This document shows, piece after piece, positions 17,891 through 60,779 of a stretch of DNA of 64,000 nucleotides; within the stretch, counting starts at the first letter, position 1, and each line of letters starts with the position of its first letter. Source of the DNA: Gnetum montanum (lineage: Eukaryota; Plantae; Gnetophyta); the NCBI GenBank assembly GCA_015680685.1, contig MNCI01000614.1, positions 370,825 through 434,824 on the forward strand, given 5' to 3'. Made by a program: the position numbers and the translations under genes. The notes under the pieces were generated by a model. The model saw nothing but the letters and a program-made list of their open reading frames with translations. It was not told the DNA's origin and ran no database searches.

Positions 17891-18238
17891 TTTATAACCT
17901 TTATCACTATTCATAACCTAGTTCACATTCTAGTTGCATAATCAGTTTATTGTTTGTTACATTATGATTGCATAGGTTAACCAAAGTAGCTTTATAACAT
18001 GAACAAGAACAAAAATACATAGCGTACATGAAAAAATAAGTGTTAAAACATATAAAAACTTAAATTTTAAAATAATAATAGTCTAAATGTCTATCACAAA
18101 TTATGACAAAATTTTAAAGAATACATAAAATAATAAACCATCTCTCAACAAATAAAGGCTAACACTAGTCACAACATCAAAATTAGATGATCAACAATAA
18201 CAAATAAAGTAGCCAAATATAACAAGCAACTGATGGTG

Positions 18239-21227: not shown

Positions 21228-24200
21228 AGTTGGCTTTCACATTAACTAATAGTAGGTCTAGCCAATAAGCTGTGAGGATATACAACCCTAAGTACTCTGC
21301 TACCATTAAGTGTGGGTAGTTTTTGAGGCTTAGTCCTAAATTTTTAGTCATAAATGAAGATCACTACAATTATATTTGTGCTAAAATGCAAGGTGGCATG
21401 CTAATTCCACATGTGAAAGTAGAAGCCAAAAGAGAGTTTGAGATCATACATTGAGATGAGAAGGAATACATCCTTTCCCCATATGACAAAATTCCCCTAA
21501 ATGATGCCTATGCTTGCATCCTATCTTAGCTGATTGAGATGGATAAAGAGGATGAAAAGCATAGCTCAGAGGAGCATGTGGAAGAGAAGGATGAGTTTAG
21601 GGTAGAATCTAAGCTTGAAAACCTCCTAGGTTGGTTTTTCCAATAAATAATCCCCATGGCTATAGAGCCTTCTTGTACCGCCTCCTACCTAATTATGTGT
21701 AGTTCCACACTAGTCATCGGTGCATAACAAACACAATCGATATCATAGTCAACCATGTTTTACTTTGCCATTCCATTCACCACCAAGCCTAGGTTAGTAC
21801 AACCATCATCAATGGTGGTTACCACCAACAACCCATTGATCTTTCAAATGGGATCCACCATGGGACCCTAAGTAGCCTAGGGGTCACATACTCCTTTCGT
21901 TCCTTTTGTGCCTAAAGTACTAGCATAAACCTCATTTTTTTTATTTAGCCTACTAACTAATGTTATAACACAACTTCTTCCCTCTATTTGACAATCGATA
22001 GTGAGGCCAGAAGCCTCCAAAAAAATATCACAATCCTTCATTCAAACCCCACAGCCTATTGGGACATCATAAGACCTAGATCAAGCCTTCTAGATTATCC
22101 AAGAATTGAAAGAGGAGTTGAAAAGGCTCAAGGCTTCTAGTTCTCAAAGAGTCAAGATCATGAATGTTTACCAGAATAATCCTATTAGTCCTATGGTCCC
22201 ACCCCTAAAAATTCCTTATGGTGTTTCTATTTCCCAATTTACAAAGTATAGTGATGAGGTTGATCTCAACGTTAACATTATAACATTTGTTTTGGAGTGC
22301 TTGTTATTACAAGCATGGCCACAATATTATGAGGATTTTTCCTATGTCCTTGACTAGGAAAGCGCTTGACTAGTACCACACCCTACCTAGAGGATCTATA
22401 TCCTTAGTTAAGGACCTGATAGCCCAATTCATTAACCTATTCTAGTATAACTTGAAGCCTAACACTATTCTTAATAAGCTAATGAGGGTCAAGCAATGAC
22501 ACCTTGAACTAGTGTAGAAGTTCATCCAATGATAGAACGAGTTGATAAATGAGATACTAGAGCCTATAGTTGAAACCCACCTTTTGGTTATATTCAAGGG
22601 GAAGATCAATGATTTTATTAAGTGTAAGCTATATTACCTTGATCCATGATCACTTAGTCATGCCTTCTCTCAAACAAAAAACATAGAGGATTTCATGGAG
22701 GCCAATCATGACCCCACCTACGTGGCATCCAAAAATCAACACACCTAAAAGGACAAGGAGAGAGGTAAATAGAATAACATGGTTGTGGAAATCATAACCA
22801 AAGAGGCTAGCACAACCAAATAGAGGCCAAAATCCAATCCACTCAAGGCCCCTTTTAACAACTAAGATATCTAGTTGTTGACCTCTAGGACCACTACATT
22901 AACTACACCTAGATCAAAATTTAACTAGAAGGACTATAGCAAGTACAATAGCTTACCTTTGAAGCCATATAAACTACTAGATTAACTATTGAAGAGTGGA
23001 CATATAAAATATAAACAAATGACTAAAGATACTCCAGAGAAGCACAAGTAGCTATGCAAAATAGCCAAAGATCCCACTCAAGTGACAAAGGATGATCCTT
23101 AACTACCTAGGTACTTTAAGCTAGATCACTTTTTCCATTATCATCAATTTCCTAGTCATGACAGTAACTTCTACCTTTCTTTGAAGGATAACTTGAAAAT
23201 GATGATAAATAAAAGAGAGTTAATCCTAGATGCCTCCAACTTGGTCCAATTGCCAAATTAGTTGATGCAAGTGTATAAGGACACTTTGAATGCTAATAAC
23301 AACCTTTACATTATATTGACATTTAACATCGATGACAATCAGAGATCTATGAGGAAACATTTTATGATTTAGGTAGCCCTTCTCGTGTGATAAAAGGGCA
23401 TCTTTAGCTTCGACTAGCTCAAGTTCTCCTTTTGTTGTGGGAGTACCATCATGAGTGCCTTTTTTCATTAGGGTGCCTTAGCCCATCACAACTTAACCTA
23501 CCTAGACATCTAAATAGTAACCTCCTATGATGGCTAATGCCACATCCTCTTCATCCTAGAGAATCAATGACAATCCAAAAGCCTTAACCAAATAGAGGAA
23601 GAAGCCTAGGTAGAAGGCCAACAACAATAACGATGATCAACAAACAAAGTCATGCAAGGAAGTGGGCCTATTGAACTTCACTTTCATATCCATAGTACCT
23701 ATGAATTCTACAACCCAAGCTATTTCTAGAAGTAAACCATGAGAGAAAAAAAAAAAGCTAAGAGAATAAGAAAGAGAAAAACCTACATGCATTTTGAGGT
23801 GCATGAAGGAAGTGAAGCACAGCCGAGGTGATAAGCCCATGGCCAAAGATAAGAACTTCCTGAGTGCAATGAATTAAGTCAAGTAGTTTCTCAAGTAGAA
23901 GAATACAACCTTGAGCTTGCATGACTTGATCATGACTTTTACTACACATCATGAAGTGCTAGTTAAGATGTTGACTTCTATCCATGTTAGTGAGGACATC
24001 CCTACTAACGAGAAATGCATCCATGCTATAGTTGTTCTCTTTTCACCAAGGAAAAAGAAGCCAACATTGCTGGTGTTCCACAATAGTGAAGTAAAGATTA
24101 ATTCCCAAAATAGCAAAGTAACAAGGGAACCTCTTTTTATAACCATATGCATAGGGTATTACAAGGTTCATCAAGCACATGTTGATGATGGTGCCACAAC

Positions 24201-24767
24201 TAATGTTATCCCATGCAACATTGTTGAGCACTTGAGCTTGACTAAGAAAATTCAACATACAACAACATCAGCTCTCAAGTCCTTCAATGGGTCAAGGGTA
24301 GTTGTCAAGGGGTATATATCCTAAGATTATTTGGTAGGAAAGAAATTCCCCTCCATTGCCAATTTCTTAGTGATGAAGCAGATGCCAGGTTTAACGTTAT
24401 CTTGGGAAGACCATAGTTAGCCCAATTATAGGTCATTTCTTCACCTATCCATTAAGAGATTCACCTTCCTTAGGAGGGAGGTGAAATCATCATTCATAAT
24501 GATAACATGGTTTCCCTGGTTGTTAACAACATAGATATAAAGTACGAGTCTAAAGTGTAGATTCAAGAAGAAACTCCTAGCTATGAAGTCTAGTAGCCTG
24601 AGAGAGTAGAGAAAGCCAAAAGTGACAATGATAAACAATGGAAAAAATTGTGGGAAGAGCTTCCCTTCAACATTGGTGGTGAACAAGGTGGGGAATAAAA
24701 ACTCATGTAGAATAGATCTTACACATTTCCTAATATTTCAAAGATTAGGAAAATTTTTCACAAGTGA
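21228..24767 (+). pseudogene. gag: gag-protease ORF of Tat copy B
   Basis: PLKIPYGVSISQFTKYSDEVD; HFFHYHQFPSHDSN..LKDNLKMMINK; protease HQAHVDDGATTNVIP (ORF 23911-24324); ends KIRKIFHK*. Confidence 0.87.
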
Positions 24768-25049
24768 GGTGCATCCCTAATCCTTTTGCATTATGCTCTT
24801 GTAACCTATGTAACCATGCACTGATAGCTAGTTAGCCTAGATTTCCTTTGTTTCTTGTTGAGTTTTTTTGTTTGCTTTATTTTAACCTTTTTCAACATGT
24901 AGCCTAGAGACTTCATTTTATTTGCATTTCTATTTATTGTGGTAGTTTTCTTTCTTTATTTTCCTTATTTAGCATGATATAAACTAGAAGACCCATAAAA
25001 AACTTTAAAAATGAAAATTGCCAGAATAAATATGAGTTTCCTTTCAACC

Positions 25050-25683: not shown

Positions 25684-28600
25684 TCACATCAAGAATTTAT
25701 TGGGGGCATCCAGAAAAGGAGGTGGTTGATCATCATCATCATTATCATCACTAGGGTTGCCAACATCACTTGATGCCCCCTGTGACACAACAACATACAA
25801 TCAATTAGTAATCGATAACCAAAACTATAACTTGAAATCAAAATTGAAAACATAAAAGCCATCAATATTGAAGGGAATCTAGCTCCATGAAATCCTAAGG
25901 AAGATGTTGAAGGCTAGTCTCCAAATAATGGAGAATCTAGTCTTTCATCATGTTGGCCTAGTTAACATCCCCAAAATTGATGCCATTGAGGATGTTTGTC
26001 CTATCCATGCTCATCCATGATGGTGACTTCCATGAGACTGTAGTCCTAGAGATCTTGTCTATATCTATAGTAACCTAAGGAGAAGGAAATTTGACTATTG
26101 AGAGAGTGCTTTCAAAGTGTTTGTAAGTGCTCTAGGCTTGAATTCCTTGAATGAATAGCTCCATCTTATACCGTTCAGTCATCTCTTTCTTCAGCAACTT
26201 CAAGTATGCCTCCCAATCAATCTTATAATGTCCCTTATGATCATTTTGTGCTCAAACCCACTTTAGGACCCAAGCACTATAATTCTTTTAGTCTTGGATA
26301 TTTCAAGAGATCAAATTCATATGAATTTTCTACTTGGCTAGCTACTTGGAAAGGACCACCTTATCATGGATGGTGCACTAGTAGCAGGCCCACATGATCT
26401 CTTTGGTTTGTGAGTTTTCCAAGTTATTCACTTAAGCCTCCACGAAGGCTTATGGTCCTCAAGATCCCTAATCCTCTTAGCTTGCCTTTTATTTTCCTTC
26501 CTCAAGGCTACAACTCTCTCCCATAGGGATTAATTAGACCTCTAAAACTCCCATGAAGCTTTTGCACATGAAATTGCAAGATCAGTGGAAATTTCATCTA
26601 ACTTTAGTGGGATATTTTGAGTGTCAGGAGGAAGCTTAGGCAAGGATTCAAACTCCATGTCTTGGGCTAGGTCCCATGGAATTGATGGCACTAAAAACAA
26701 CACGTATAACCATAAACACAATATACAATCTCAAATAGCCATAACATGAAATAAAACCATATCAAAATGACTAAGGCATAGTAAAACATAGCTCTTAATA
26801 ATCTCAAGTGCAACCTATTGTAGCTAATTGATGATGTACTTTTCTATCCCATGCATGAGTTCTATCTTGTCTAGGACCTCTACTCATGGCTTCATGTGAA
26901 ACATGGATGTAGAGGCCTTTGTTGGAGGCTTAAGTACTACAAAAAGCATAACAATCATCAAGAGGTTAGAACAAAAACTAAGCATAAAACCATAAGCTAT
27001 AATGAGTAGGTCTAATGCATAGGCATACCTAGATCCCCATCCTCATTAGGAATGATGAATATGGGCTTCTTAGGTAATGGCTTATTAAACAAGACATCTA
27101 GATCATCCATATCAACATTGGCTAATCCTTTAGCCTCATGTTTCTATGAGAGTGACTCCTTTTCACACATTTTTTCCGCTACTATAGTCACCAGAAAGCT
27201 TTGCTCCTCAACAACATGTCTAGGCTTCTCCTTTGCATGCCTCTACTATTCTTCTATAGTGGCAGCATAAGCTATCCTCTCTTGCCATTGATCTGTAATC
27301 ATAACCTATTAGATAAGTTAGCACATGTAACCATAAGAAATAGAACATAACATAGCTAAAACATTAAAAATATAGCTAAGCTTACTTGCAACTACTTGAT
27401 GTGACTACTTTGTCCTGAAGAGGATCTTCTACTTGGTAGATGACTATGATGATGGTAGTGCTTCCAATGTGGGCCATTTCAACTTGGACCTATTTGCCCC
27501 ATTAGCCTTGAAACATAACCATCAGGCTCTTGAGATGTTCATAGAAATTGTCAAGGGCTCCTCCCTCATGCTATTAGTGGATTAATACTACATAAAACTA
27601 AATCCTTTGGTGGTAATAGACAATGAATCTTATGATGGATTTTGGGCCTACATAGTTGGATAAAGATGCTTTTTCCAAGGCCTAGAGAGTTGGTTTGGTT
27701 CCTGGCATGTCCATTGTCTATTTCTACTCACCTCCAAAAATTTGCAAATATCGCTAGATAACTTGCAAAAATGCAAAATGCATATATATTATCATGGAGA
27801 TGTCTTCGTGGAGTTTGAGGATTTTCTCCTTGAGGCCTATAGCCAGGAAAGTAGCCTAGCTAAAGTGTGTGACCTTTAGCAAGAGCTTTTTGAAGGTTCA
27901 TCCCTATGTGATATTGATTCCCCTGCTAGTGCACCTACATTATGCTTGTCATTCTCACTATGTGTAGAAGACCTAGATAGAGGAACCCATGCTAGGTGTT
28001 ACCCTAATGCATATTGAGAAGCAAACTAAGAAATGACCAAGGTAATGTAGGGGGCATTCCCACTTCCATAGTTGCCTCAGGGGATTGACATGAAAGTCTA
28101 GGCATGTAAGGTGATTGTGTTTAACACAAACATGTAGGAGGAAGAAACAGCTTCAAGGTAGGGGCATCCTTAGTGATCCTTCAGTGATCAAAAGGGCTAA
28201 AGGGATTTTCCCATGAAGAGGGACTCCTGACTCTCAAACACGATCCCATTGAATGAGAAAACTCAAGGACTTATTCCCTATAGCTTCTAGTATTTCATAA
28301 GTCATGTCCATCTTGCCACACTGAAGGGTTAGAAAGCAATCTTGAATGAACATTGATCATGTTTGAGAATGAATATTAATCATGTCACACCTTTCATGTG
28401 CATGACAACAGTTTGGGAAAGGCATGGGATCCAAATAAAGGATAACATTCCTTTTCTTCATGATTCATGAAGCCATCTATGACAAGTCTAGAGTGGTCAT
28501 TGCTAGCACCAAGCCACTCCTCAACTTCCTTATGATGGTTGACCTCCTTCACTATTTACGCAGTAACCATTATCCCATTAGTGGAAACATTGAACAAGTT

Positions 28601-31445
28601 ACAAAAGGTTTACTCATTTATAGCAATGGTGATAAGTATGCCTCATATGCTGGTGGGAACACATTGGATCCTATGTTAAAGAAGTTAATGATGTTCAACA
28701 TCTATGTAGAATGAATGGAAGGGCTAGGCACATGAAGACATCAAAAAAACTAGCAAGTGTGATGTTTGTCTAAATGTCCTCAAATTCTTGCCCTCTCAAT
28801 CACTCATGTGTCAGTCCCACATCATTGAACTTCAGGATGAGAGTATTCATGGAGCATCTGGAGAGGGATATGATGACATCAGAAGGAATGGAAGGTCCTG
28901 CAAGCCAACGATAATCGCCTAGCATTAGTACAAGCATGTTTAGACCAAAAATAAAGACCATAGGACACTTAAGATCCAAATAGCCATAAAATATTAAGTA
29001 TAACATAGAAAACTATTCTTATTCTCATCTTTCTTCTTCTTGTTTAGTGGAGCTCACTTAGTGATTTTAGTGGTAATGCCTTTATCTCTGACACTCTTGG
29101 AAGTCACCCACCAACTACATGTTATTTTGGTAGCTACACACTTCTTGTAGATAGGGTTGAAGTTAGTGGTGTATCAAAATTCCTTCTCAACTATTCATAC
29201 ATGATAGTTGGGATATTGGGGCCAATGGTAAATACATTTAGGGTATTTTGGACCACCACCAAGGTTTGATCATTTATGATCAAGCTTGGATCATTGACCC
29301 TATACATTCAGGAAGTTCACAAAACCAACAAATTAGGATAGGTGACAAAGCTAGTAAAGTGAAAACATCAAAAACCTATAATAATCATGCTTACCATTGT
29401 AAGTAATACACACTCAGAGGATTCTAGAATAAGGTATGGACTCTATGCACTATCATTAGAGTATGATCAGCATTGTACTGAGAATAATCTAGCATCCTCC
29501 AAATGCTTGAAAGGTAACATGTGTCAATAGTGTGCTTTGTCTCCATCGACTGTCGCGTTGCTTGGGTTACTAGATCAATAGTTATGAACCTAGCAATCAT
29601 CCTCGTTGACCTAGGTAGTAGGGTCTTAACTATGATGATCATAACATCTGTGGACAAGTTTAACCACATCATTACACTGAAATTTTGCAAGATGTAGGCA
29701 AGGAATTTCCTTGCCCTTGGTCAGAACCACAATGAGCCCCTCTTCAAGACGATGTCATCCAAAGGGATGTTTGCCTTTGGTTGGCTAACACAACAGAGGA
29801 TGCTAACTAGCTTAGCCATGATGAGTATGGGCTTTAGCAAGGTCCTTCATGGAGAAACAAGAACACCATTAGAACCATGTCTCAACACTTAGAATTTTCT
29901 TATGAATTTTGTAGAACATCTTAGTTGGGGGTGAAATTAGCCCTTGTATAAAAATCTAAAGTGTTTGTTAAAATTAATTTAGAGATTCAACAACAACCAT
30001 GTTACAAATCCCATATCCATTAAAATCTATAGACAAAAAATCACAACATTATTATGCCTTAGCTCAAACCATGCATCAACATAGAAAAATCTTAAGAACC
30101 TAGACATAGCCATAGTAAAAAAATCACTAAAAATAGCAAAAAAATTCTTATCTTTTGTAAAATCAATTAGAGCATAGTTAATATCTTTGGAAATCCTCAA
30201 TAGCATGGGATGTTGACAAGAAAAATTCTTAAGCATGTCAATGCTGCCCATATCCAAGGGATAAAGCTAATACAACTAAAAATTAAGCATAATTGACATA
30301 GCCTTAGTTAACAATTCATTAAAAATACATCCTAGCTCCAATTTTAGTGATTCTAACATGGAAGAAATTATAAAATCAAAATTTTTTTATCCATAGCTAG
30401 TATAACCAAAAATTTACAACCATTATTACATGAGACATAGCCAAAATTATACAATTGTAGCAGTTACCATAAACCCTCTTTCACGTAGGGTTGGAAAAAA
30501 TTTGTCAAAAAGGTTTTCACACTCCAAATGGAGTGATTCCATGACCATTTGAATGCTTGAATTGATTCCTATGCATATGAATTTAGAAAAAAAATTCAAA
30601 ACCTTTGTCATTTTTCAAAAAGCAATTTGTGAACATTCATTAAAATCTGAAAAATGGCATAAGCCCTAATTGTGAAACCTAACTAAAATGGCCATACTTC
30701 ATCATCACAACTCCAAATTGACCTATATCACAACCATTAAAAACCTTAAACATAATACTAAAAGCCCATAATCTTAGATTTTTGCAATCCCAAGCCATTT
30801 ACATAATAAAAATTTATAACTTTGCTTAATTTTTTCACCAAAAAAGCATCAAATAACACAAATTTTGCAAACACTATTTTAAGTTAGCCTTGAATTAAAA
30901 CTAAAATAGTTAAAAAACCTTAAAAATATGTAAAATTCATCAAAAATTTTCATGGAAGTTTTTCAAATTTTAATTTTGAAAAATATTGTAGCCTAGATCC
31001 AACAAAAATGGCTCCACCCCCAAATTGATGAAAAAAGGACATGAAACAACAAACTTAATTTTAAAATCAAATCAACTAAAGCATAAATAACAAAATTAAC
31101 TTAGGTCTATTTAGAAACCATCAAAATAAAATGTAGTATTTTATTGAAATTTCATTTTATCAATTCCCTTAAGATAGAACTAAAAAAATGACTCCTACCT
31201 TAGCTACGAAAGAATAAAAGTGGCTAGAAGACTAAAGAAAATGGCCAGGAATGGCCTAACTTGGGGTGTTTGAAAGAATAAAAATGGCTTGGAGACTAAA
31301 GAAAATGGCTAGGAATGGCTTAACGTGGGATTTACATAGACAAATATTGGATAAAAGATAGCTTGGTTAGTTGTGATATGTTCTTGATAGCCTCATCTAC
31401 CTCTTGAATCCTTGGATTTTTGCTACTATCTCCATGTTGCTTCAT
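25684..31445 (-). pseudogene. Antisense multi-exon cargo gene of copy B (NIF/FCP1-like domain, transposon-associated domain, charged/coiled-coil C-terminus)
   Basis: Exon 1 MKQHGDSSKNPRIQEVDEAIKNISQL. Exon at about 29395-29887 reads WF*PRARKFLAYILQNFSVMMW..LSSIWRMLDYSQYNADHTLMIVHRVHTLF*NP. Last exon ASSDVGNPSDDNDDDDQPPPFLDAP. Coding blocks and introns are collinear with 44343-48865. Confidence 0.75.
31208..31329. repeat. 64-bp-period tandem duplication
   Basis: gaaagaataaaa.tggct...agactaaagaaaatggc.aggaatggc.taac at 31208 and 31272. Confidence 0.9.
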
Positions 31446-36872: not shown

Positions 36873-36913
36873 GAATTCCATGGAAAGCAAGCTCAATTGT
36901 TGATTATTGTTAG

Positions 36914-39900
36914 CTACCTGTAGTATGATTTTAGATAGGAATGATTGATTGAATTTCCCAACTCATATCCATCCACATTTGCTATCTAGTAGGCCCCATT
37001 GCTATAGGCTTTGGTGATCAAGAAAGGCCCTTACTAATTGGCTGAGAATTTGTTTGCATGCTCATGGATAAACTTAAGAACAAGGTACCCTTCCTTGATC
37101 TTGCATTTTCCAAGGTTATGGTGATGTTGCTACTTTTTCCTATTATAGTAGCACTTGGTGTGAGCAAGCATTCACACATGCTGCTTTGCATTGAGTCTAG
37201 GTCCATGGTATGCAACTCCTTATTTTGTTTGTCATTGATAAAATTAGATAGGGTCATGACATCAAATATAATGATAACATTGGGAAAACCCCATTGAGTG
37301 AGTAATGATACCTACAATTAAAGAGGTAAAACTACTTCATTACCATAAATAAGAATATATTTGGTTATGCATATTGTAGCATGGTATGTGGTTTTGTAGG
37401 CCCAAAGTGCATGGCCAAACTGCTCATGCCACATGTGTTTACTATTGTTCAATATTTTCTTGAGCAAGTTGATGATGGCCTTATTTCTTACTTCAACTTA
37501 TCCATTGGCTTAAGGGTAATAAGGTGATGAGAAATAGTGGTTAATGCCTAGGTCATGACAGAAATTTTCTACTTCTTGGCTACTAAATTGTGGTTCATTT
37601 TCTGTGCCTATGGTCATAGGTATGCCAGTATGGGCTACTATGTTGTCAAGAATGAATCTATAGACTTTTTAAGATATCATTTTCCTTAGGGGAATAGTCT
37701 CAACCCACTTGGTAAAGTATTTGGTTGGGATGATGATGAAGATATTCCCTATGGAAGACTTAGGCATTATAGGTCCAATGATATCCAACCCCGATCATTG
37801 AAATGGCCAATTTTTCTGAGTGGTGTGTAACTTAGTTGGTGGTACAAGTATGAGATTATTATGTCATTGACATGTATCTCAAATTTTGACCTTTTTTAGG
37901 TAGTAATTTTCAATATAAGGCCAATAATAACCTAACCATCTAATTTTAGTAGCCATGGATTTAGATCCTATATGTCCTCTACACACACCCTCGTGAACTT
38001 GCTCTAAGACTCTTCTAGATTTAGTTTTACCTAAGCACACTAATAATACATCATCATAGGACCATCGACATAATGTGTTATTGCCTAATATGACATACTA
38101 TTTTGATTATTTATGTACATCATTCTTTTGAACAACAGTCAAGTCTTATGGAGGTTCTTCATGCATAAGGTAAAACTTGACATCATCATACCACTCCTTT
38201 ATAGGAGCAATATGAACTATGGCCACAAAGTTATCCTTAGTATTCTGCATGATGGGAAGAGCATAGTCCCTAATCAATGTTGACAACTTACTAAACACAT
38301 CTAGCATCACATTGAGGGCTAGCATTGTGATAACATCAACTATAGAATTTTTGTTTTGGGGTATATGTTGGATATCAACATTTGTAAATTGTTGTAATGG
38401 TTTCTTTCCAAAGTCATAGTAAGATTGTAAATATTTGGCTTTACAAATGTAAACCTCAATTACTTAGTTTAACATAAGTTTTGAATCACCTTTAATCATT
38501 AATCGTTTAATTCTTAGGTCACAAGCTATCATCATTTCCCCAATTAAACCCTCATAATTTACTATGTTTTTAGTGCATGGGAACTCAAGATGATAAGCAA
38601 ATGATTGGATTTCACTAGACAAGAAGGTAATAATGGCAACAAAACTATTCCCATGCAAAGTTGAAGCTCCATAAAAGTACATGTCTACCTTATAACCATT
38701 AGGTACTTGGCTAATGGTTTTAACATGTTCATCCAAAAACTCAAGGTCGATGATTGCATGGTCATCAATAGGTGAAATAATATGTTGTATAGCTATAGCT
38801 TGATCCTTTGTTGAGGATTGAGAGATGTAGTAAAGGTCAAACTCCACTGTTATGGGTTTTCATTAGGCTCTATGGCCACTTTCATAGATGTTGGTTATGG
38901 CTCTAAGTATATTATCCTTGAAAATGACATTAGCTTGGCTTTTGAAGAGGTAGTGTCTCCACTTTTTCAATGAGAGGACTAGTGCTAGATAATACTTCTC
39001 TAGTTTATTTTATTGAGTCTCATGGGTAACTAATGTAAGGATAAGGTAGTATATTGGCATATCTACTCCATCATCCCATTTTTGATAGAGTAGAGAGGTA
39101 ATAGATGTGTCAAAGATAGTAAGGTAGATATAAAATGGTTTACCTTCTTGTGGAGGATAGATTGTTAATGGTTGTGCTAACTCTTTCTTAAGGTTTTCAA
39201 AGGCTTCATGGCATTGAGCCATTCACTCATAATGAACTCCTTTCTTAAGAAAGTATTGCATGGCTTGTAACTTATCCATAAGGCTAGTGATGAACCTATG
39301 AATAAATTACAATCTACCTTACAATCCCTAAAGCTCCTCGAGGTTAGTGGGTGCTACCTATTTGGATATCATCTTAACCTTTAAGGATTGATGCATATCC
39401 CTACTTCAAACACTACAAAGTTTAGCATCTTATTGGTCTTGATACTAAAAAAATCTTGGGATTAAGCCTAAGTTCATACTTAAGGCATTATTTAAGAACA
39501 AGATCTAGGTCATTAGCATGATTTTTGGCCACTTTGGACTTAATGGTTGTACTGTCTATGTAATCATTGAGTAAACCTAGCATGTAATCACTAAATATAC
39601 ACATCATAGCCCTTTTATAGGTTTCTCCTACATTCTTAAGACCAAAAGGCATATTGGTATAGTAAAAAATACCTCAATGCATCATGAGAAATCATCTATA
39701 AAGGATAACAAGGCATGTCTGGCTGTAGTATTGATAATTTAATCAATACTAGGCAAAGTAAATTCATCCTTGATGGTTGCCTTATTTAGGTCTCAAAAAT
39801 CTATGAAAATGCAAATACTCCCATTTTTCTTAGGGACTACCATAATGTTAGATACCCATTATGTGTAATCAATGGATCTAATGAAACCAACTTAGTATAG

Positions 39901-40344
39901 CTTTGTGATTTCATCACGAACTACTAGGGCCAAATTATGTGTAATATTATAGAATGTTTCCTTAATTGGTCTAATGCTAGGGTCAAGTATGATGTTCTGC
40001 TACACTAGGCATTGGTATAGGCCTAGCATATCTTCATATGACTAGGTAAAGGACTTAATGTTGTATTATAGGACACTGGTAATGTCTTAAGCCCATTGAG
40101 GTTCTAGTCAAGAACTTAATTTTAGCATTTTCTCCTCACCACTATGTGTTGTGATAGGGACCTCAACCAGAGAATATTTGGTTGTGTCTCTTGCCTCTAG
40201 ATGAAAGGTCTTAATTAGGTTCTTATGCCATTCTAGAGGTTTCTCTATTGAGGCTATGTTCTCAACAAGACTCTTAGGCTCAAGATCATGATAATCATGG
40301 TCAATACACCACTTAACATCCCCATGAGGTCCATGTAGGCACAA
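36914..40344 (-). pseudogene. pol: pol of Tat copy C: RT - RNase H - archaeal-type RNase H - integrase
   Basis: RT: VSNIMVVPKKNGSICI, MPFGLKNVGETYKRAM, DYIDS (decayed YxDD). RH: CHEAFENLKKEL..PIYYL. aRH: MYFYGAS..FPCTKNIVNYEGLI..IKGDSKL. INT: GLDIIGPI..YFTKWVE, SSPYYP*ANG. Ends YLKSYYR*. Confidence 0.92.
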
Positions 40345-41239
40345 AGAAAAACTAATATGCTTCTAGATAGTCATACTTTAATCTTGAATGTCAACCAAAA
40401 GCATAGCAAGTGGCACATAGGTAGAAATGCATAAATAATGTTAAAATACTGTGATATCATGCAAACACATGTTATTCTAATGTTGAATATAATATAATCA
40501 AGGTTATCCAAGGCCATGGGAAGGTAGAAACAAGCAAAAATAATGGAAACAAGGTCAAATAAAGGTTTAAAAGACACAAATAAGATTAATAAATGGGTAG
40601 AAAAGGTTATGACCTTGCCAGTTTTAGGCCTTGATAGGCCATGGTGCCACAGTACCAGTGCTAGTTAGGGAAAGCCAAAATGAACTACCCAACATCAATC
40701 TAAGGCTAAACAAAGGTCCAAAAGGCTATAATAAAGAAAATAAAGGGAACATAAGGATACATAAAGTTATATAGGGAACTTATGATGGCCAAGCAAGTCA
40801 ATGATGAAAAACAAGGCAAAAAACAAGTCAAAACATCGTGACATAGGGTCACGTCAAGAAACATGGAATGCATGAGATAAAGATTGGCTAATTTCGATCA
40901 AATAGGAATAGAGTTTTCTACATTTAGGCCTTAGAAAGCCATGATATGGGGCTACAAGGTTGCTAGGAGAGTTTGGGCACATGAGGGGGTCATGTTGGGG
41001 TTGTTTTAAGGAAAATTAGCACTTTTTAATATGATTACATTGTGTTCTATTGGTGAATGCATTGGCCCAAAATAGTCCTAACTTCTCAAGTGTAGTCAAC
41101 ATTCAAATGTAGTTTTCTAGGCTTAGTATGGTGACTTTTAGGTTTCCAGTGGTCTAAATAGCTAGTGCAAGGATGGGTATTGAAGATTGAAAACTTTTGA
41201 CACTATTTTAGCTTCCCAGAAGGCTAAACAAACATAATC

Positions 41240-43780
41240 CCAGATATGACTATGCTAGGCTAGTAGGCCTTAGCATAGTCACATGGAATCACCAATTTTA
41301 TCAGGTTTCTAGAGTTAAAACGAAGTGCAATTATAGCTAGGAGGAATGGGGGTAGGGTTATGGTTATTTTGTGTTAGTTTTAGGTCATTTTGAGCTGTTT
41401 ACTATTGATTTTTATTGCCACATTTCCCCCTCCCATTGGGACTAAATTAGCCTAGTGTAGTCACCACCTTCTTTAATGTAGTCTTGCAAAAAATGAATTT
41501 TGATGAGTTTTGAAGCTTAATTAACCATGCTAATGGGCTTATGAGGCCATTGGTGTTGCCGGCTAGGGTTTTAGTGTTAAAATTTCTCATTTTCATGTCT
41601 ATTTGGATCTTTGATCATCAAATACCATGGGACTACATTGGGCATATAGTTCCCAATGTAGTTAAGGAATTTGGATGGAAAGATGATGGAAAAGAGTGAA
41701 GTTTGTCTTATTTACAAAGGTTTGAAGGTCTATGCATGCTCCAAAAAAGTTTTGGGTCTTTCCAAGAATCAATTTTAGAAGCTTTTGGGAAATTTTAATG
41801 ATTCTCAAGTGGAATACGCTAGGCCTTGGTAGGGACTATTGTGGTCCAACATAGTTTCAAATTTCTCCAGCATAATCAAGTTTCAAAACTTATAAAATAT
41901 TACTTTTATTACCAAATTGACTTTAGTTGATTTCAAAACTTCTAAAAGTGAATTCTAAGTAATTATGGACAAGTTTTTGGAAAATTTAGATGAACTACAG
42001 CTCAACCTATGTAAGGACTACATTGGCTTAGTGTAGTCCCAATTTCCTTCAGCATGTTTGTGATGGTTAAAATTGATAAGAAAAGGTATATATCATGGCC
42101 AAATAGGCTCCGATGAGGTTCTAGGGTTCATCAAAAATGAATTTTCTATCATATTAATCAATCTTAGGCAATTGGAAGTGGACTACACTAGGGCTTGAGA
42201 TGGACTATGCTGGACTGCCATAGTCCCATTCCTCCTTGGCATAGTTGGATTATGTTTGTTCAAAAATGATGAAATTTGACTCAAATCCAAGGTCTGATGC
42301 TTCTAATGTGTCTTGTCAAGTATCTAAAATTTAAAATGACATTCTGCTAGTTAAATTAAACTTGGTTTAAACCCCAAAATGTGGACTACATTGGCCTCCT
42401 ACTAAAACTATGTTGGCCATGCATGGTCCTCTCAATCTTCAATGTAGTCACACTTTGGCATAGAAAATGTGGATTTATATGATTAAAATCAGCTTTGAAA
42501 AGATCCTAGGATTTATTAGTAGTAGAGTTAGGTCATTTTTGGCTATTTTTCATGAATTTTTTATCGACTACATTGAGCTTTGGCAATGACTACATTGGCC
42601 CAACATAGTCCCACCTTTCTCGAGCGTAGTTAAGGTGGTGATGATTAAAAAGTGAAAATGGAGATTTTGGTAGTCAAACAAGCTTAGATAGGGTTTTAAG
42701 GCTTGTAAAAATTAGATTTAATTCATATTTAATAAATTTCAACTAGTTTTTTATGGACTACATTGGGCTCTGGAAGGGACTATGTTGGCCTAGTTTAGTC
42801 CCAATTCTCCTCTATGTAGTTAGGATTATCATGGTTAAAAATGAAGAAAAATTACAAGTTTTGTTGTCAAAAAGCCTCAAATAAGGTTCTAGGATTTACT
42901 AAAGGTATATTTTCATGGTTTCTTGATGGATTTTAGCAACTTTGGATGGACTACACTGGCCTAGTAGAGTCCAAGTCTTCCATTAGACTAGTTGAGGTTG
43001 GGGATGTAAAAAATCAAAAAATATGATAAGGTTCATATCAATCTTTAGCTCTGTTGGATTTTAGGTTTCTAGGGAGGTGAGAAGAACTAGGAAATGAGTT
43101 ATTTGAAGCTTCCTAGATGGAATACACCAACCATCTCTAGTGACTACACTAGCCTAGCATAGTCACTCTTGGGAAATGGTGTTTGGATTAAGAAAAGTCA
43201 AAAACTTGCTTCCATTCCTAGTCTGGCATGGTTTTGAGATCTCTAAAGATGGATTGGGACTTATGACTAATGGATTTATGGATTTTAAGTGGACTATAGT
43301 GGGAACCTACTAGGACAACACTAGCTCAAGAAAGTCCCCTTAGTCTCTAGTGTAGTCCCATGTGGAAGCATAGATTTATGGATTTTCTTTGAGTCTTTAG
43401 TTGATTGGTCAATAGTTTTAGGTTACTAGGGGTACTCAAAAGGTGTGGAGGTTTCGAGATGTAGTGTTAGAGGTTTTTGATCATCTGCATAACCCCTTTG
43501 ATCCTTAAACCTTGGGAGTACATTAGGCCAACATAGTCCCTGGGTTCCCCAGCATAGTCATGGGAAAGAGGGAAAAGTGGCACCATTTGTTGCATTTGAC
43601 CATGTTTTAGGCCTACTAAGAGCATAGACTAGGATTTAGAGAGATGGGCTGGCTATTCAGAGTTGAATGAAGGTTGGATGGAATGGATGGTATATTGTGG
43701 ATTGAATGGAAGCAAGATGTCTTACTAGACTATGCTGGGCTAGCGTTGTCCATCCTCAAGGTCAACATAGTCCTATGTTA
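41240..43780. repeat. Spaced array of nested inverted-motif clusters (GACTAYRYTRG / CYARYRTAGTC) in copy C
   Basis: About 14 clusters near 41250, 41450, 41630, 41820, 42000, 42180, 42385, 42565, 42755, 42950, 43120, 43290, 43520 and 43730; e.g. ggactacattggcttagtgtagtcc at 42015. Confidence 0.8.
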
Positions 43781-44342
43781 ATCAAGTTTTCCATATGAAT
43801 TTTGGAGGTTCTTGTAATCCCATTCATTACATATGTCAATACTTTCTTACTTGGTTTTTTTGGAAGGTCTTATCATGGCTAGGGATTGGGTTTTGGTAGA
43901 TGGATAGGAATTCGTATGAAGCAAGGTTTCCATAAGCTTCGAGCTCTATGTAGTCAAGCCTTATGGGCAAAATTGTTAGCATAGTCATAGTATTAACTTG
44001 CTTGCCTAGTGCCCTATGGAACCCACATGAAATTAGCAAGTTTAAATATTTTCATAACCTAGCTTAGTCTTTAGTTTCCAATTTCATCTCCAAATGAAGT
44101 GAAGTTGCACATGGAAACTAGGGTTTTGGTGTTGGCTCTTAGGTTTTAAGTGAGTTTTAGGGGGAAAATTTTGTAGAAATCATTATTCTCTCATATTTTC
44201 TTTGTTGTGCACAAGTTGGAGATCTTTTACTATCCTATTACCCATCCTTAGTGTAGTCAAGGATTTTCATACCAATAGTGCCAATGTAGTTACTTCAGGA
44301 TTGTCAGAACTCCATAGTTTTTTTTCATTCTCTGCATCAACC

Positions 44343-47300
44343 ATGAACAAGAAGGTGCTCATGAAGAATTCCACATTGGATGAGGTAAAGGAAGATGCAT
44401 AGGACTTATCACAGCTACCTTGTTCAAGGATTGGAGAAGGTGTTCCACTATTTATCCTAGGTACACATTTCTTACTAGTATTTTCACTTTTCCATTTATT
44501 TTATTTTTGGGGTTTTCTTTCTTTTCTCATATATAGGCTTGTGTATTCATTATTTTGAGATTTTGTAAAACTACCACCATATATCTAGTCAATTTTTATT
44601 CATTTTCAATGTTATTTGGGCTTTGGAGTTTGGTTGCATTAAATTTTAAATTCTTTTTCCATGATTTCCATGGCTATTTTGCTTTTTCTGCCAAAAAAAG
44701 CAATGCCACTTTTGAATTTTTTTTCTAACTAAATGACTAGGTTTTTAAATTTTCTAAGTCCATGAGGTTATTTTCTATCATGTTTTAGTGAACAATAGTT
44801 TTAAACCACCAAATTGTTCCTAATAGTTAATTTTCTATGGCTATTTCCGTTAGGCTGCATCAAGTCATGGTATGGGTTTGTATTTAATAGTTAATTTTCT
44901 AATGGTTCATGAAATTTCAAAATTTATGGTATGGGTTTGTATTTAATATTTCAAGGATTCCAACAAACTTTTAATCATTTAATTTTAAAAAATGTTTTGA
45001 CTTTTATTTTCATTTTCGTGAGCTCGTGCGAAATACGTTTCCAGCATGATGACCACAATTAGATCAATTTGGTAATTTTTTGTGAAAATATGCTTAATAA
45101 TTTTATTAGTTTATTATTATGAAGTTGTATTTCATGAATTCATGATTCCAATGGATATGGAATCATTTAATTTACTTAATTAGTTACTTTGTTATGGCCA
45201 TTTTTGTACAATCATGCAAAATCGTAGTTATAAGGTTGTTATGCATTTACCCCTATGAAGATGGGCAATGTTGAGATTGTGAAAAGTTTTTTCCTTAAAC
45301 ATCCCATGATCTTGGGGATATTTTTGGATGTTGGAAAGGGGTTGGAAGTGGTCTAGATAAAAAGAAATTTTTTTTCATATTTTTTAAGTGTTTTCCTATG
45401 GCTATTTTGGTATTAAATTGTAAATCTTGGTTGAATCCTGGTTATAGACTGGTTGTATTTTGGGTTTTTTTCTAATTGTATAATTTAACATTGAAGTTAA
45501 AATTTTATTCTTACATTTTCATTTTCTAGTTTTTATCTCTAAACTATCAATTCCATGTTTTCAGTTGTAATCAATCATTATTGCAATTTTAGTGTTAAAA
45601 TATCATTTAATGTGAATTGTTTCAATTTTTTCTAAGTGTTGTTTACTATGTTTGATGGTTATAAGACTAAAAAAATAGGTGTAGTAGTTGTAATGTTATC
45701 TTTCTTCTAAATTTTATGTATTTTTTTTAATTTTAGGTTTTGCTTTGTATTGCTATAATAGTTGTGGTTGGATGTTATAGGACCTTCTTGAAGGCCATGC
45801 TCATGGTTATAGAGATGGTGTGGCTTTTATGATACATCCATATCCATGGGCCTAACACTCCAATTCTAGATATGGAGTGGGATCACCGTGTGATATGGTT
45901 TAGGCCAAGAGCCAAAGACTTCCTTGCCTATATTCTTAAGAACTTCAGTGTGATGGTTTGGTCACACTTGATGTTTGAATCTATAGTAGTGATTATACAG
46001 TCCATCCTACTTGGGTCCTATAGCTTTTATTATTAAGTTTACAATGGATGAACTTGATTCTTGTGCAGAGGGAGAGAGAAATGATGGCAATACCAATATG
46101 GATTCTCGCAAATTGTTAAAAATTTGGAAGATGCCTGAATTGAGTTAGTATAATGTGGATAATACTTTGATTGTTGGCCACCATGCTCATATATTTTTCC
46201 AAAACCCTCCAGGTACCATTTACCACATAGAGGGGTAAGTAAGGTTGCCTTTGGGTTTATGGTTACTTTCTTTTTTATGTGCTTAAGGTGTAATGATATT
46301 TTCATTGTTTCACTTTCCTAAAAGATCAAGACAGATAAGTGAGGCTTAATCAAAGGTGAGGACCTATTTTTCTTACCGTACATAGCTTTTAGAGGTGTTT
46401 ATAAAAAGCCCAAATGTATGGCTTGTGATAGTGGAGCAGTTGGAGGATGACTTTGAAGAAAGCATTAGATGCCATCCTAAGTCTTATAAGAGATGTCTAG
46501 AGAATGGGACAATAGATAGTTGGTGAGAAAACCCATCTCTTGATGACATAGAAGTAAATCCATCTTCTAGAACTCTTAAGATATCTAAATCATATATGCG
46601 AAGTAAGTGTATTTTTGATTTGTTGATTTCATGCTAATGTTTTTCTAGTTATGTAGTCATTAAGCTATTTTGGTTTTGGCTATCTAAGTAGTTATATTGG
46701 TTTTGTTTTGTCTTGGCTATATTTTTATTGTAATTTATTTTACACAATGCACCTATGCTAAGTCTAACAAGCTATTCCTCATGTTTGGTGAGGTGGAATC
46801 CTCACAAGATTGGTTGATGGATCAGGAACCTAATGCTACAAGTGTGAGGATTATTCATGTGGGCCTATTTGACCTCTTCATGGCCCCAAGCCTGATCATT
46901 TCCACTACAGAGATGTTGAACATTATTAACTCTTTAGCAAAGGAGTCAAGAAGTTTTTCATTCATGTTCATAGTGTGATTTTTATTTTAGACATTACTGT
47001 GTCCACCTTTATTAATCTCTATGGTGTTCCAAATGATCGTATTCTAGTAATATCCAAAGCAGGGAGGGAAGTGAACCATTGTGGTACCAAGGGGTACTCT
47101 CTAAAATAGATAAAGTTACCATTGATTAGAGAAACGTATTTCTTGTTCTACTCCTAGGCATTTCCTAAGTTGTTATTATAGGGAAATATGCTTGACATAG
47201 AGCAAGGTTGGACCATGAAGTAGGTACTCTCAGAGGATGCTTGATTCAACTAGGCTACACACTTGATTTCTAAGCTACAATGGGAGATCCAAAAGCTTTG

Positions 47301-48865
47301 CAACAATCTCATCACAAAGTGCCATGTGCACTTCACACTTTTTGTATCTTATTTAAGGAGGGTGTTAGAGTTCCTAGTGGTGAGGAAGGGTGGGTGATGG
47401 ATTACCCAAGATCCATCCCAGCTCACCAAACCTTGGGTGAAGCTCCTTGCTCTAAGCATGTAGGCCAAAGACCTGCTAGAAGCCATGGGTGACTCACTAT
47501 CTATCACTACCAAGGGAATTAGTGGTAGGCAATATAAGGGCAAGGCCTCTTGCTTTTCTAGGTAACAATAAAAGGATCCAATGATTATACACTAAAGCTA
47601 ACAAGATAGCTAGGGCAAAGCTTAAGAAGCCCATAATTGAAGTAACATTGCTAGTGATCGCGGAGCCTTTGAAGAAGGGAAAGTTAACCATCAAGCTTAG
47701 AGATGTGGACCATGATGTTAGAGGTATGTGTTATTTTAGTTTCCTTTTTTAGTTATTGTTTTAAATTAGTTTAATGTTTCCTTTTAGGAAAAATTTGCTA
47801 ATTTTTTCTATGCTTTATAATTATTGTTCTTTCATATAAGTAACAGGAATAGAAAGCCATGGCCATAGTTGTAGTAGCTAAGGAGGAGTGAAGGAGTAAG
47901 GAAAAGGGGAAACTACAATGTTGAGAAGAGAAAATATTTAAAAATTATGAGGATGAGGCATTACAATAGCAAGTGAATAAGGGTTTATCCCCTCCTCCCA
48001 TAGGCCATTTCTATGCCTTATTCAGGACTGAGCAACTAGGTGATTTGCCTACCTTCTCATTAGATGGTGCACAAGGTATTAATCATTTTTGGTTTTATGT
48101 TTCATTGGATATTTTTTGACCTTGGACATAGTTGTTGATTGTTTTTTATACTTCTTGTAGGTTCAAAGTCCCAAGCTAAAGCTTCTAGGTCCACCTTCCA
48201 CATGAAACCATGGGTGGATACCCCTAATAAATTTGAATTTATGTAGGGTGTCACTGAAGACATGATTAGCTGGTTGCATCAAATAGCTCATAAAATTCCT
48301 AAGAGTTCTAGATTATTGTTCCTTTATTATTTATATGGGTTTCCATGGCTATGAATTTTTTGTTATATTTTTTTTTAATTACTAATTTTTTTTATTATTT
48401 TTTTGATTTTTGTTTTCCTATGTTGGTTATAGTGCCTAAATTGAGATTAGATCTTGACCAACTAGTGGAGGTTTTTACATTGCCTCTTTTAACTCTTAAT
48501 TTAGATAATGTCCCATGAAAGCTATATGAGGATGTCACTAGATGTGCACTCTCATGTGCTAAGTCTTTAAGAGAATGTAGGTTCTCCAACAAGTTCCTAT
48601 GGGAACAAGTTGTAGCATTGAAAAAGGAAAACACATAGTTGAAAGTGGAGGTAAAGGATAGAAGAGATCACAAGGATTTTATGGAGGCCCAAGTGACCAA
48701 CAAGGACTCCTTACGCATAAAGGAGATAACTTTTATTCATTATTGGAATGTGTGTTGTTTACTAATTGATTTTGTGTTGTCATGTCATAGGCACCATATG
48801 ATGATAGTGGCCCCAGCGATGATGGTGAAGATGATCCCCCACCTCCTCCTATAGATGCTACTTAG
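44343..48865 (+). pseudogene. Antisense multi-exon cargo gene of copy C
   Basis: Approximate exons: 44343-44460, 45737-46234, 46325-46602, 46750-47723, 47846-48075, 48161-48290, 48433-48725, 48791-48865, separated by T-rich introns, most with GT/AG ends. Peptides WFRPRAKDFLAYILKNFSVMVWS and RKLLKIWKMPELS*YNVDNTLIVGHHAHIFFQNPPGTIY; ends DGEDDPPPPPIDAT*. Confidence 0.77.
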
Positions 48866-49591: not shown

Positions 49592-49884
49592 AAGAGAAAA
49601 TATTTTTTAAAGTTATTTTTATGTTTTAAAAAATTTAAGGATTTTTTGACTTTAAATTTTTAAGAGGTTTTTCTCTTTTCAAGAAAAAAGAAAAGCTTTA
49701 AAAGTAAAAGCATGTAAACCAAAGTAGACTTTAAACTATAGGTAAACTTAAATTCAACATAAAGAAAGAAAGAAAAAATGAGATAACATGAAAAACTAAA
49801 GCAAAAACTAGGCTATTAGGCTATAGGTACATATAATTACAAGGTTATAAGTGCATAGGATATAAGAAGGATCAAGAACATATA

Positions 49885-51672
49885 TGACTTGTACAAGTGT
49901 TTCATAATCTTCAAGAGATTAGGAAATGTACATGTTTTATTTTGCACCAATTTATATTTTCCATCCCCCTCACTAACAAAGTTGAAGGAGAGCTCTTCCC
50001 ATAGCACATCGATGGGTTCATCATTGTTCACTTCAGCCTCTCCTACTCTATCACCATTTTTGATTTTTGTGACAAATAGTAGGACTTTCTTCCTAAAACT
50101 CCACTTCGAACCCTTGTTCCATATTAACATTATTAACAACTAAAGGGACTACACTATTGTCATGGATAATGATTTCACCTCCCTAGTAAGATAGATGGAT
50201 TTCTTAGTGAAGAGGAGAAGACAAAACTCATAATTAAGCTTGCCAAGATCTTCCTAGGATGAGGTTGAATCCTAATGTTTCTTGTACCACCAATAAATCT
50301 ACCATTATGGAGAATTTCTCCCCTACCACAAAATCTATATAAATGGAGCCTTAAAGGATTTAATGGTTGAAGTCATCATATGTTGCATCTATTCAATGAT
50401 GGTATAATGTATGACGTTGATTGTCATATCATGATCTACATGTACTATATGTACTTTGTATTTTTTAACTTGTATGGTTATGAAGAGGGGTGCCTTGGTT
50501 ACCTTGCCATTTTGGGGGTTAATCTTGATTTCATTGTCGTGAAACACTAGCAATGTTGACTTCAATTCTCTATGTGATGAGGGTACCATCATTGCATGGA
50601 TAGACTCTTCATTAGTAGGGATGTCCTCACTAATGGGAATAGAGATCAACATCTTAATAAATGTTTTGCTATGGGTAGCAAAAGTCATGACCAAGTCCTA
50701 GAAGATCAAGGTGGTATTCTTTTACTTGAATAATTGTTTAACTTGTTCCATCACATAAGGAAGTCTTTCTTATTGATCATTGATTTGTTATTTTTGACTT
50801 CTTCCATATGACCTAAAATGCAAACTTCATATTTAGATTGTTGTTGTGGTTTAGTCTCTTTCCTTTCTTCTTGGGGTTTGGGTTCCACTTGTGGTTTACT
50901 TGTTGAAGCACCTTAGGTTATGAAAGTTATGGAAACAAATGAGATGGGAGTGGAATTTGGTAGGTCCACTTCCTTCCCTGACTTTGACTAGTTATCAATG
51001 TTATTCTTGGCCTTCTATGTAGCCTTATTTTGTTGTTTAGTTAGAGATTTCTTGTTATCCTTAATTGGTTGCAAGGAAGAAGACATTGCATTGGCCACCA
51101 TAGGGGGTTGTTGCTCTATTGTTGGGGAAGGTTGTGTTGTAGAGGGATGGGGCACATTGATGAAAAAAGGCTCCTTAGGGGGCTTTCATTATGGTACCCT
51201 TACAATAAAAAGGAATCTTGAACTAGTAGAAGCAAAAGAGTCCCTTTTGTTATGAGGGGATACCTAAAGCATGAATGGTTCCCTCACACACATTTGATTG
51301 TCATTGACATTAAACACTGATATAATGTATGAACTATTGTTGGTTTTCAATGGGTCCTTATATACCTACATCAACTAGTTTTGAGGCCTAATCAAGTTTG
51401 AGGTATCTAGTACTAGTTCACCCCTATCAATCATCTTTTGTAGGTCATCTTTAAGTGGAAGGAAAAAAATTTTATCATGACTTGAAAATTGATGATAATG
51501 ATAGAAGTAGTCGAGCTTAAAGTACATGGGAACTGGAGGATCATCCTTAGTTACTAGAGTAGGACCTTTTACTATTTCATATAACCTATCATGTCTCTTA
51601 CAAAAAATCTTAATCATTTGCTTGTATTGTATCCTACTACTCTTCAACAGTTGGTCTAGAATCTATGATGGC
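49885..51672 (-). pseudogene. gag: gag C-terminus and protease of Tat copy C
   Basis: ORF 51375-51647 (YFYHYHQFSSHDK..LKDDLQKMIDRGEL), ORF 50389-50694 (VHIVHVDHDMTINVI) and ORF 49837-50139, all homologous to A and B. Confidence 0.87.
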
Positions 51673-52511
51673 TGATAAGTAACGAGGTACCCCTACGCCC
51701 AACCATATGAATATGAGTGTTATGAACGATTCAATCAAACTCCAAGGATTAAATGTTTATGCACTTACATAGAACAAGGATGGGTTATGTGAACGTTATC
51801 TTCCCAAGCTTACTTGTACAACATGATTTTATGGTTAAGTAAACTTGAGGTATATGATTTTTATGTTTTATGTTCCTAGTGCTTAAAATGGAGAAATAAA
51901 ATAATTGAGTTAACTAATTTAATTTCACTAATCCACTATGCTCTAAATAGTCCTAACACTAGCATCCATTCCCACTTGCCGAACACATCCTAAACCAGTG
52001 TAACACTACTGGGATTACCAAACACTAGTCATTATTGGGTTACCAAGTGTTCCATGTATGCTCAAAGTAGTCGTACTGAGTGTGCTAATTTTTTGATAAT
52101 TAAAAATTCAATAAAATAACATTAATTAGCTAATGAGAGTAGAAAATAATAGTAAATAACATTTAAATGAAATAATTAAGCTATTCTGAATGTTACAAGG
52201 TTTATCATAAAGTTCGTCATTATTTCCAGACATAAGGTTTGCTCAGGTACACAATGCTTGAATAAGGATCCATTCACTTTATGACTCCTACTACAGACAC
52301 TTAGAAATAATGCTAACTCTGGAAAGGAAAAACTATAAGAGTTTGGCTAAGGAACTAAGAAACTAACTACAAAATCATGTGCCCTTTTCTCTTATTTATA
52401 GATGATGAGACAAGTTCTGATATTGCATGTCTGATATCACTTTGGCACCTCTGATATCATGTATCAGATATCGATGGTTTGATATCATAGGTCTAATACC
52501 ATGACTCATCA
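51673..52511 (-). repeat. 3' LTR of element 2 (839 bp)
   Basis: TGATAAG..CTCATCA; direct repeat of 60780-61416; TATA at 52393-52400 (minus strand); TCYGATATCR repeats at 52415-52500. Confidence 0.92.
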
Positions 52512-60778: not shown

Positions 60779-60779
60779 A

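Follow-up and report, generated by a model that had tools for sequence, protein, structure and literature searches.

The window and its retroelements

The window, a stretch of 64,000 nucleotides, holds three related LTR retrotransposons, here termed A, B and C. Their gag-protease regions lie at 14722..17412 (A, plus strand), 22071..24844 (B, plus strand) and 49804..51673 (C, minus strand, interrupted at 51673 by a further element, D), and were recognized through three-way homology, a weak match of the B copy to Pfam gag-asp_proteas (E 0.07) and motifs identified by eye. Three homologous LTRs begin with TG at 11438, 19041 and 35834, namely L1 (11438..12850, plus strand), the 5' LTR of A, L2 (19041..20500, plus strand), the 5' LTR of B, and L3 (34310..35834, minus strand), which is 59% identical to L1 over 1606 columns. 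As L1 and L2 share a further primer-site-like tail that is missing in L3, the latter is read as the 3' LTR of C. No element of this family has both LTRs in the window, and the primer sites are too decayed to call. B and C are collinear in opposite orientations, both across the gag-protease region (22963-24844 versus 51673-49804, 66%) and across a block of about 5 kb read antisense to it (25427-31046 versus 49105-44482, 56-62%); A retains the gag-protease region and the 3' end of the antisense block.

A pol region lacking the protease lies on the minus strand at 36900..40250 and encodes a reverse transcriptase (RT), an RNase H, a second, RVT_3-type RNase H and an integrase (RT_RNaseH_2, E 6e-17; RVT_3, E 0.003; integrase, E 7.5e-10) in the order typical of Ogre and Retand. 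The archaeal-type additional RNase H that distinguishes the Tat clade is present, as are the two Ogre hallmarks of an RH-aRH-INT order and a GAG-PROT region set apart from the RT, though this domain order also occurs in Retand. The sections of Neumann 2019 (PMC6317226) drawn upon here give RH-aRH-INT for angiosperm Ogre and Retand only, and the order would be notable in itself if the host is a gymnosperm or a fern. In C the gap between protease and RT measures about 9.5 kb and holds the antisense gene along with a non-coding spacer (40300..44480) with semi-palindromic repeats about 190 bases apart and no LTR-like sequence. Neither a conserved splice donor after the protease nor an acceptor before the RT could be called. 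The simplest reading, which we regard as probable, is that C is a single element with an antisense gene between its protease and its RT, a linkage of pol to C seen in one copy. If so, annotation would be affected, as standard tools would split such an element into pol-less and gag-less fragments.

A possible but less probable arrangement is that A, B and C are non-autonomous, have all lost pol by deletion and carry the antisense gene at its usual 3' site, and that the pol at 40250-36900 came from another element and was fused to C by recombination. In the window a pol is seen in neither A nor B, one and the same short tandem motif comes after the protease in A and B and after the integrase in C, the region downstream of B matches the spacer of C only weakly (best E 0.016), and pol-less Retand clusters are described in the portion of PMC11963269 consulted. 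However, each of A and B is cut by the next nested element before any pol could appear, and the tandem motif also occurs just upstream of the RT. Furthermore, no LTR-like sequence was found between L3 and the gag of C, L3 is homologous to the 5' LTRs of A and B, and the pol starts at the RT without a protease, which is the complement of what C possesses. The original prediction that the gene is carried by an LTR retrotransposon family is borne out, the gene being collinearly linked to gag-protease in B and C.

The tandem motif, 29-35 nt in length, occurs in related forms at 17797-17888 and 25206-25292 (after the protease in A and B) and at 36793-36875 and 40527-40647 (after the integrase and before the RT in C). 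Within the spacer of C, about 14 semi-palindromic repeats of 40-80 nt occupy 41054-43775, upstream of the antisense gene, with a nucleosome-like spacing near 190 bases; the region downstream of B (32226-33810) has different repeats spaced by 180-200. A reading of 31400-34300 as pol, and then as LINE-like, was ruled out; the segment is stop-rich in six frames and contains internal repeats. The elements appear to form a same-family nest, in which B interrupts A at about 19041, C interrupts B at about 34310, and D interrupts C at 51673. Element D (51673-61417, minus strand) has LTRs at 51673-52301 and 60780-61417 that are 86.5% identical, and its gag and pol-like frames look Athila-like by eye. 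A young, CG-rich element occupies both flanks, 1-4090 and 61440-64000, as two oppositely oriented copies that are 88-93% identical; their LTR edge bears 17/34/48-nt CGATATCG-type repeats, and assembly gaps lie at 2040-2797 and 3561-3952. Between 4085 and 8818, short direct repeats (4085-4341 and 8548-8818, 74%) surround what by eye is a Copia-like gag remnant, for which an element with an internal deletion is the likely explanation. The nest, which is old and has decayed slowly, gives the impression of a large genome with slow turnover.

Structure of the antisense gene

The antisense block includes an exon encompassing motifs I-IV of a NIF/HAD domain. In C it spans 45737..46234 (plus strand), with two stops and one frame break near 46015, and is readable in two frames (45785-46012 and 46020-46234). 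In B it spans 29394..29864 (minus strand), with two stops and no frame break, and the domain core is read in a single frame (29840-29394). The two domains are 35% identical, and both copies are decayed. A GT-AG intron (46235..46324, plus strand) can be deduced in C between PPGTIY and LLEVF; the donor in B, at 29394, has the same aligned position and codon phase. In the next exon of C (46325..46602, plus strand), which has three stops, the LLEVF..PNV stretch looks, on visual inspection, similar to the region of the C-terminal helix in the host family, and this exon obtains no score against the profile of NIF matches. The peptides quoted for B and C in the original prediction occur at the positions and on the strands to which they were assigned, and its count of one frameshift and two stops in C holds for the core exon, the next exon adding three more stops. 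The gene extends well beyond the 45737..46602 given there, a range that also takes in the 46235-46324 intron, which went unmentioned.

The remainder of the gene in C (46603..48750, plus strand) appears to consist of exons separated by T-rich introns (donor at 47724, acceptors at 48160 and 48432), the last exon being a coiled-coil-like one (48433..48720, plus strand) with 47% amino-acid identity to B over 72 codons and only weak matches to coiled-coil Pfam families (E 0.02 and 0.18). The corresponding part of B (25900..29393, minus strand) is collinear with C, and A retains a 3' remnant without the NIF part (17927..18876, minus strand), cut off by B. Throughout the block T-rich stretches alternate with richer ones, and splice signals occur at positions common to B and C. 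Upstream of the core exon, an AT-rich block in C (44482..45736, plus strand; 58% identity to B 30067-31046) is likely to comprise the promoter, 5' UTR and first intron. Outside the NIF core no Pfam family scores above its cut-off in the gene block, and no transposase, BRCT or dsRBD match was obtained. The NIF domain would accordingly be placed at the start of a putative multi-exon gene that ends in a coiled-coil-like exon and runs antisense to gag-protease. An exon-like region past the coiled-coil exon, present in B (25900-26330) and A (18350-18887) and missing in C, has no family match.

Identification of the NIF/HAD domain

The relationship to the FCP1/NIF phosphatases had been proposed from motifs alone, and single copies fall short of the curated threshold for it. 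The first piece of C matches Pfam NIF (PF03031) at E 0.007 with 16.5 bits, under the cut-off of 21.8; among eight other pieces the one further weak NIF match is a longer frame containing that same piece. B alone and the second C piece have no Pfam match, and NCBIfam matched none of the three pieces of B and C, which are short and decayed and were searched with X at stops. Thus the Pfam check is negative by cut-off and positive by reciprocal homology. When B and the two C pieces were combined into a profile and 1,835,955,588 cluster representatives were searched with it, 20 proteins were recovered at E<=0.001 (best 1.8e-8), every one of which carries Pfam NIF above its cut-off. The best match is a Sphagnum cluster, the others among the eight looked up coming from Ambrosia, a fungus and unnamed sources; several of the 20 are unnamed DxD-type proteins. 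In the reverse direction, a profile of the 20 proteins scores B at 62 bits and the C pieces at 48 and 29 bits. Against six-frame chunks of the window it gives six matches in 858 at E<1e-6, all overlapping B or C, with the next best at E 3, a test that is partly circular as the proteins were chosen using B and C. Among solved structures, UBLCP1 is the nearest to the profile of the DxN-type land-plant family (E 1.9e-18).

Word-based protein searches with the window profile yielded none of 44 and none of 695 candidates; with a host domain added, 24 of 428 passed, all of them ordinary NIF proteins with 36-55% identity to the host row. PDB sequence searches with the window rows alone gave no matches, the protein collections searched contained no intact element-type protein or cluster of its own, and a motif II DNA pattern found no match in metagenome contigs. 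On the strength of sequence homology, we consider it confirmed that B and C encode a NIF/FCP1-homology HAD domain. The motif order and spacing noted at the outset as those of plant FCP1-homology proteins are indeed common to B, C and the DxN-type land-plant family.

Structural modeling gave a mixed answer. Using the window rows alone the model attains a pLDDT of 41.5 and its fold is meaningless, whereas a model of B with 18 NIF relatives reaches 79.5 and its first strand ends at the motif I position. The PDB matches of the host-rich model of B are CTDNEP1, SCP1-3, Tim50, Fcp1 and UBLCP1 (TM 0.6-0.68), of which CTDNEP1 and SCP1/2 are the best, and a viral fold search with it places giant-virus NIF proteins on top. 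This agreement with the NIF/HAD fold is driven by the host sequences and is hence circular, showing compatibility rather than providing independent proof.

Loss of the catalytic residues

We aligned the two copies, both decayed, with 44 NIF domains (40 proteins, to which the two tandem domains each of P0001 and P0009 were added; P0054 and P0058 were dropped as short). In these domains the motif I Asp is conserved at 0.91, the motif III Lys at 0.98 and the motif IV Asp-Asp at 0.98 and 0.82. The motif I Asp position is occupied by Glu in C and Lys in B, in a register set by the global alignment and the model, the local profile alignment starting only at position 33. The motif II Ser/Thr position has Ser in C and Leu in B, the motif III Lys position Arg in C and Cys in B, and the motif IV acidic pair is replaced by Gly-His in C and Val-His in B. 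None of the four catalytic positions is retained in either copy, as against 17 of 21 other conserved columns in C and 15 of 20 in B, counting columns that reach at least 75% conservation and for which the copy has sequence (one-sided Fisher test, p 0.006 for C and 0.012 for B). The absence of the motif I Asp and the late Asp-Asp pair from both copies, as originally predicted, is therefore upheld, and the motif III Lys is gone too. In one unrelated natural contig (a single-contig row of run X4) the last of the four catalytic positions is likewise His, and the first is not Asp. Judged by the motif I Asp, the motif III Lys and the motif IV pair, the domain is predicted not to be an active phosphatase. 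Because the His is shared and the catalytic positions have been lost selectively, we infer that these residues disappeared before B and C split.

It is unlikely that the domain was an active phosphatase as long as the element was alive and lost these residues by decay after insertion. Decay is indeed heavy in both copies, which carry stops and, in C, a frame break; most related contigs also disagree with C in one or more residues of motif I, so that decay private to a copy does extend to the motifs. Nevertheless, decay would have to account for the survival of none of the four catalytic positions in either copy against 75-81% of the structural ones, and the His common to three copies requires a shared G-to-C change rather than the C-to-T or G-to-A changes usual in decay. 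Moreover, the codon positions of motifs I and IV are absent from the best 40 of 583 rows of the contig difference table, a selection that may miss minority copies with Asp.

In HAD phosphoryl transfer the motif I Asp serves as the nucleophile and the motif IV acids are needed for magnesium. A change of chemistry or substrate, for instance to a metal-free hydrolase or a small-molecule binder using the Glu, Ser, Arg and His of the C pocket, is very unlikely given this dependence on the motif I nucleophile and motif IV acids. In C the motif I residue is still acidic, motif II still has its Ser and the motif III residue is still basic, and host relatives also vary, with Asn, Glu or Cys at some positions, but B has Lys, Leu and Cys at those three positions. 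A weaker suggestion is that the pocket of C (Ser, Arg, His) could hold a phosphate without cleaving it, though B does not keep these residues.

Selection, abundance and expression

A protein-guided alignment of B and C provides 140 codon pairs with identities of 0.57, 0.66 and 0.36 at first, second and third positions, and a pN/pS of 0.59 (bootstrap 0.45-0.74) with near-saturated synonymous sites. In control comparisons four shifted or reversed frames give 0.80-1.20, the reverse (antisense) frame that shares third positions gives 0.64, and the protease of A versus B gives 0.35. The pN/pS of B versus C thus reveals a purifying pattern in favor of constraint, tempered by the availability of only two copies and by the 0.64 of the reverse frame. 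Because third-position divergence is well above that at first and second positions, the gene appears to have been long under protein-level constraint in the lineages of both B and C.

The stretch is partly present in 11 of 23 listed runs, which cover six organism labels and five studies. All four DNA runs analyzed have numerous contigs on a 1 kb segment at >=80% likeness (1098, 1331, 1321 and 1037), of which 651-753 per run, over half, are under 90% alike. The family is large and old and occurs in at least three organism labels. An apparent excess of contig depth over the deduced exons relative to the intron was discarded, as contig depth cannot rank gene parts. RNA was sampled from four of the six listed raw runs, to an extent of 2% in two of them and 26% in the other two, with 13, 19, 23 and 28 reads on the stretch per run among about 12.6-12.9 million records each, at a mapping likeness of 80% that would miss divergent subfamilies such as that of B. 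None of these four RNA runs contained a near-identical read (95% or better) or a splice joint. Copy C is silent in the sampled RNA, with relatives at trace level only; both window copies of the gene are broken and appear to be silent.

This lack of expression in the RNA runs might suggest that the block is a mere passenger, namely a gene-carrying DNA transposon or host fragment copied along without serving the element. The introns and antisense orientation would fit such a DNA-level insertion, and, according to the passages of PMC4408406 available, the PMD cargo carried by Tat elements has relatives among MULE transposon domains. However, we consider this most unlikely, as the far greater divergence at third than at first and second positions, the kept splice signals and the kept fold residues indicate selection in both lineages, and the block has no transposase family match.

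Origin of the domain

In a tree of 46 rows built with a quick method, B and C are joined with a support of 99 on a branch of 3.2 changes per column. The comparison with FCP1-homology proteins consequently resolves the B/C branch without placing or naming a donor. The best-matching named relatives form an uncharacterized DxN-type land-plant family, and since it is both the best match and on hand in the host, a gene of this type would be the likeliest donor. The original notion of a captured host phosphatase is accordingly likely as regards capture, by virtue of the NIF homology, but the donor could not be placed, given the branch of 3.2 changes per column, the unnamed DxD-type proteins among the 20 matches and the giant-virus NIF proteins heading the viral fold search. 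The land-plant FCP1-homology proteins in our set (P0001, P0009, P0037-P0060) mostly have DxN in place of DxD in motif I, and tandem domains occur in some of them. A literature search under the fission-yeast gene name applied to this family returned no papers.

Predicted function of the accessory gene

Taken together, the locus probably preserves a multi-exon antisense accessory gene of a Tat/Ogre-like family, whose product would combine a NIF/HAD domain devoid of its four catalytic residues, likely a non-catalytic binding module or pseudophosphatase, with a coiled-coil helper protein. Transcription of such a gene would start at a promoter of its own, antisense to the element and within the upstream block common to B and C, and its introns could have been kept because the genomic RNA of the element would be the other strand. 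Tentatively, we propose that a host nuclear phosphoprotein, or else partners of host NIF phosphatases, would serve the dead NIF domain as a docking site, and that the protein, oligomerized by its coiled coil, may shield the element from silencing or tune its transcription. Binding of the phosphorylated CTD, as had been suggested, is only one guess at its role, since the named nearest relatives, of the DxN-type land-plant family, are not proven Pol II CTD phosphatases; FCP1 and CPL, which bind phospho-CTD, have BRCT or dsRBD partner domains.

More speculatively still, a Tat/Ogre-like lineage might have made a captured NIF phosphatase into a pseudophosphatase, fused it to a coiled coil and lodged the spliced gene antisense in a 9.5-kb protease-RT spacer, its product being a decoy or reader in host phospho-signaling, of the Pol II CTD or a silencing complex, by which the element escapes silencing. 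If true, no pseudo-enzyme accessory factor and no antisense gene in mid-polyprotein position would have been described before in plant LTR retrotransposons. Most extra genes of these elements have no recognizable domain; here, in a family that abounds in several related species, a known fold with its catalysis removed and scaffold kept poses the testable question of which host phosphoprotein or complex the dead NIF domain binds. Two published findings, each taken from part of its source, serve as analogies only: the PMD proteins of hosts, which are related to the most frequent Ogre cargo, bind the putative phosphatase PP7L and silence transposons (PMC7156037), and accessory transposon proteins are predicted to have many host contacts (PMC13547354).

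Relationship to known systems

Among cellular proteins, the land-plant DxN-type FCP1-homology proteins (the Sphagnum KAH8970694.1 cluster, Ambrosia KAI7746456.1 and Olea LOC111372385) share with B and C the motif order, spacing and fold residues (RP..FL, F.V.VW, L..IW, NTL, NP). In contrast to these relatives, B and C, at about 20-29% identity to them, lack the catalytic Asp, Lys and Asp-Asp, have an unrelated C-terminal region and occur at high copy. UBLCP1, CTDNEP1, SCP1-3, Tim50 and Fcp1 are the best profile and fold matches, with 12-17% identity, but B and C lack their DxDxT motif. Tim50 is itself a catalytically dead NIF domain used for binding.

Among mobile elements, the closest counterparts are the antisense extra ORFs of Tat/Ogre/Retand elements (PMD-coiled coil, TRP28/Transposase_28, DUF390 and SMC-like), which are alike in being antisense genes of Tat-type elements with a dual RNase H, in having a domain followed by a coiled coil, and in their tandem repeats. 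Accessory genes of this kind, antisense and combining a domain with a coiled coil, have their precedent in the pages of PMC4408406 consulted. In the accounts of these elements, as far as our extracts go, the extra ORFs lie 5' or 3' of the polyprotein region, whereas the gene described here has a NIF/HAD domain and several introns and in C lies between protease and RT. The Ogre intron in the GAG-PROT/RT spacer likewise leaves separate gag-protease and RT frames; Ogre and Bianca spacers average 172-274 bp in the sections of PMC6317226 cited, against about 9.5 kb with a gene in C.

The NIF/HAD domain is absent from the CDD table of PMC6317226 (Neumann 2019, Additional file 4), which covers domains in five or more elements only, and from the parts of the Retand survey PMC11963269 covered. 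Neither it nor an extra gene between protease and RT is named in the excerpts of PMC4408406, PMC9289625, PMC11963269, PMC13317346 and PMC7264820 consulted. The openly available full-text literature searched contained no such report, in keeping with the original remark that this domain was not known as LTR-retrotransposon cargo. Sequence comparison thus points to a NIF domain in an antisense accessory gene of Tat-type elements as the new feature, accompanied by a loss of catalysis that is likely ancestral and by a position that is likely new.

By analogy, the accessory gene may work like the PMD-coiled-coil cargo without being one, and would instead derive from the NIF family. A parallel for such recruitment is the AlkB domain of the Ogre-related Gypsy elements of orchids, where, in the portion of PMC9289625 examined, a host enzyme fold is likewise fixed as an extra ORF in the Tat lineage; the orchid AlkB keeps its cofactor residues and is active in vitro, whereas the NIF domain here has lost its catalytic residues.
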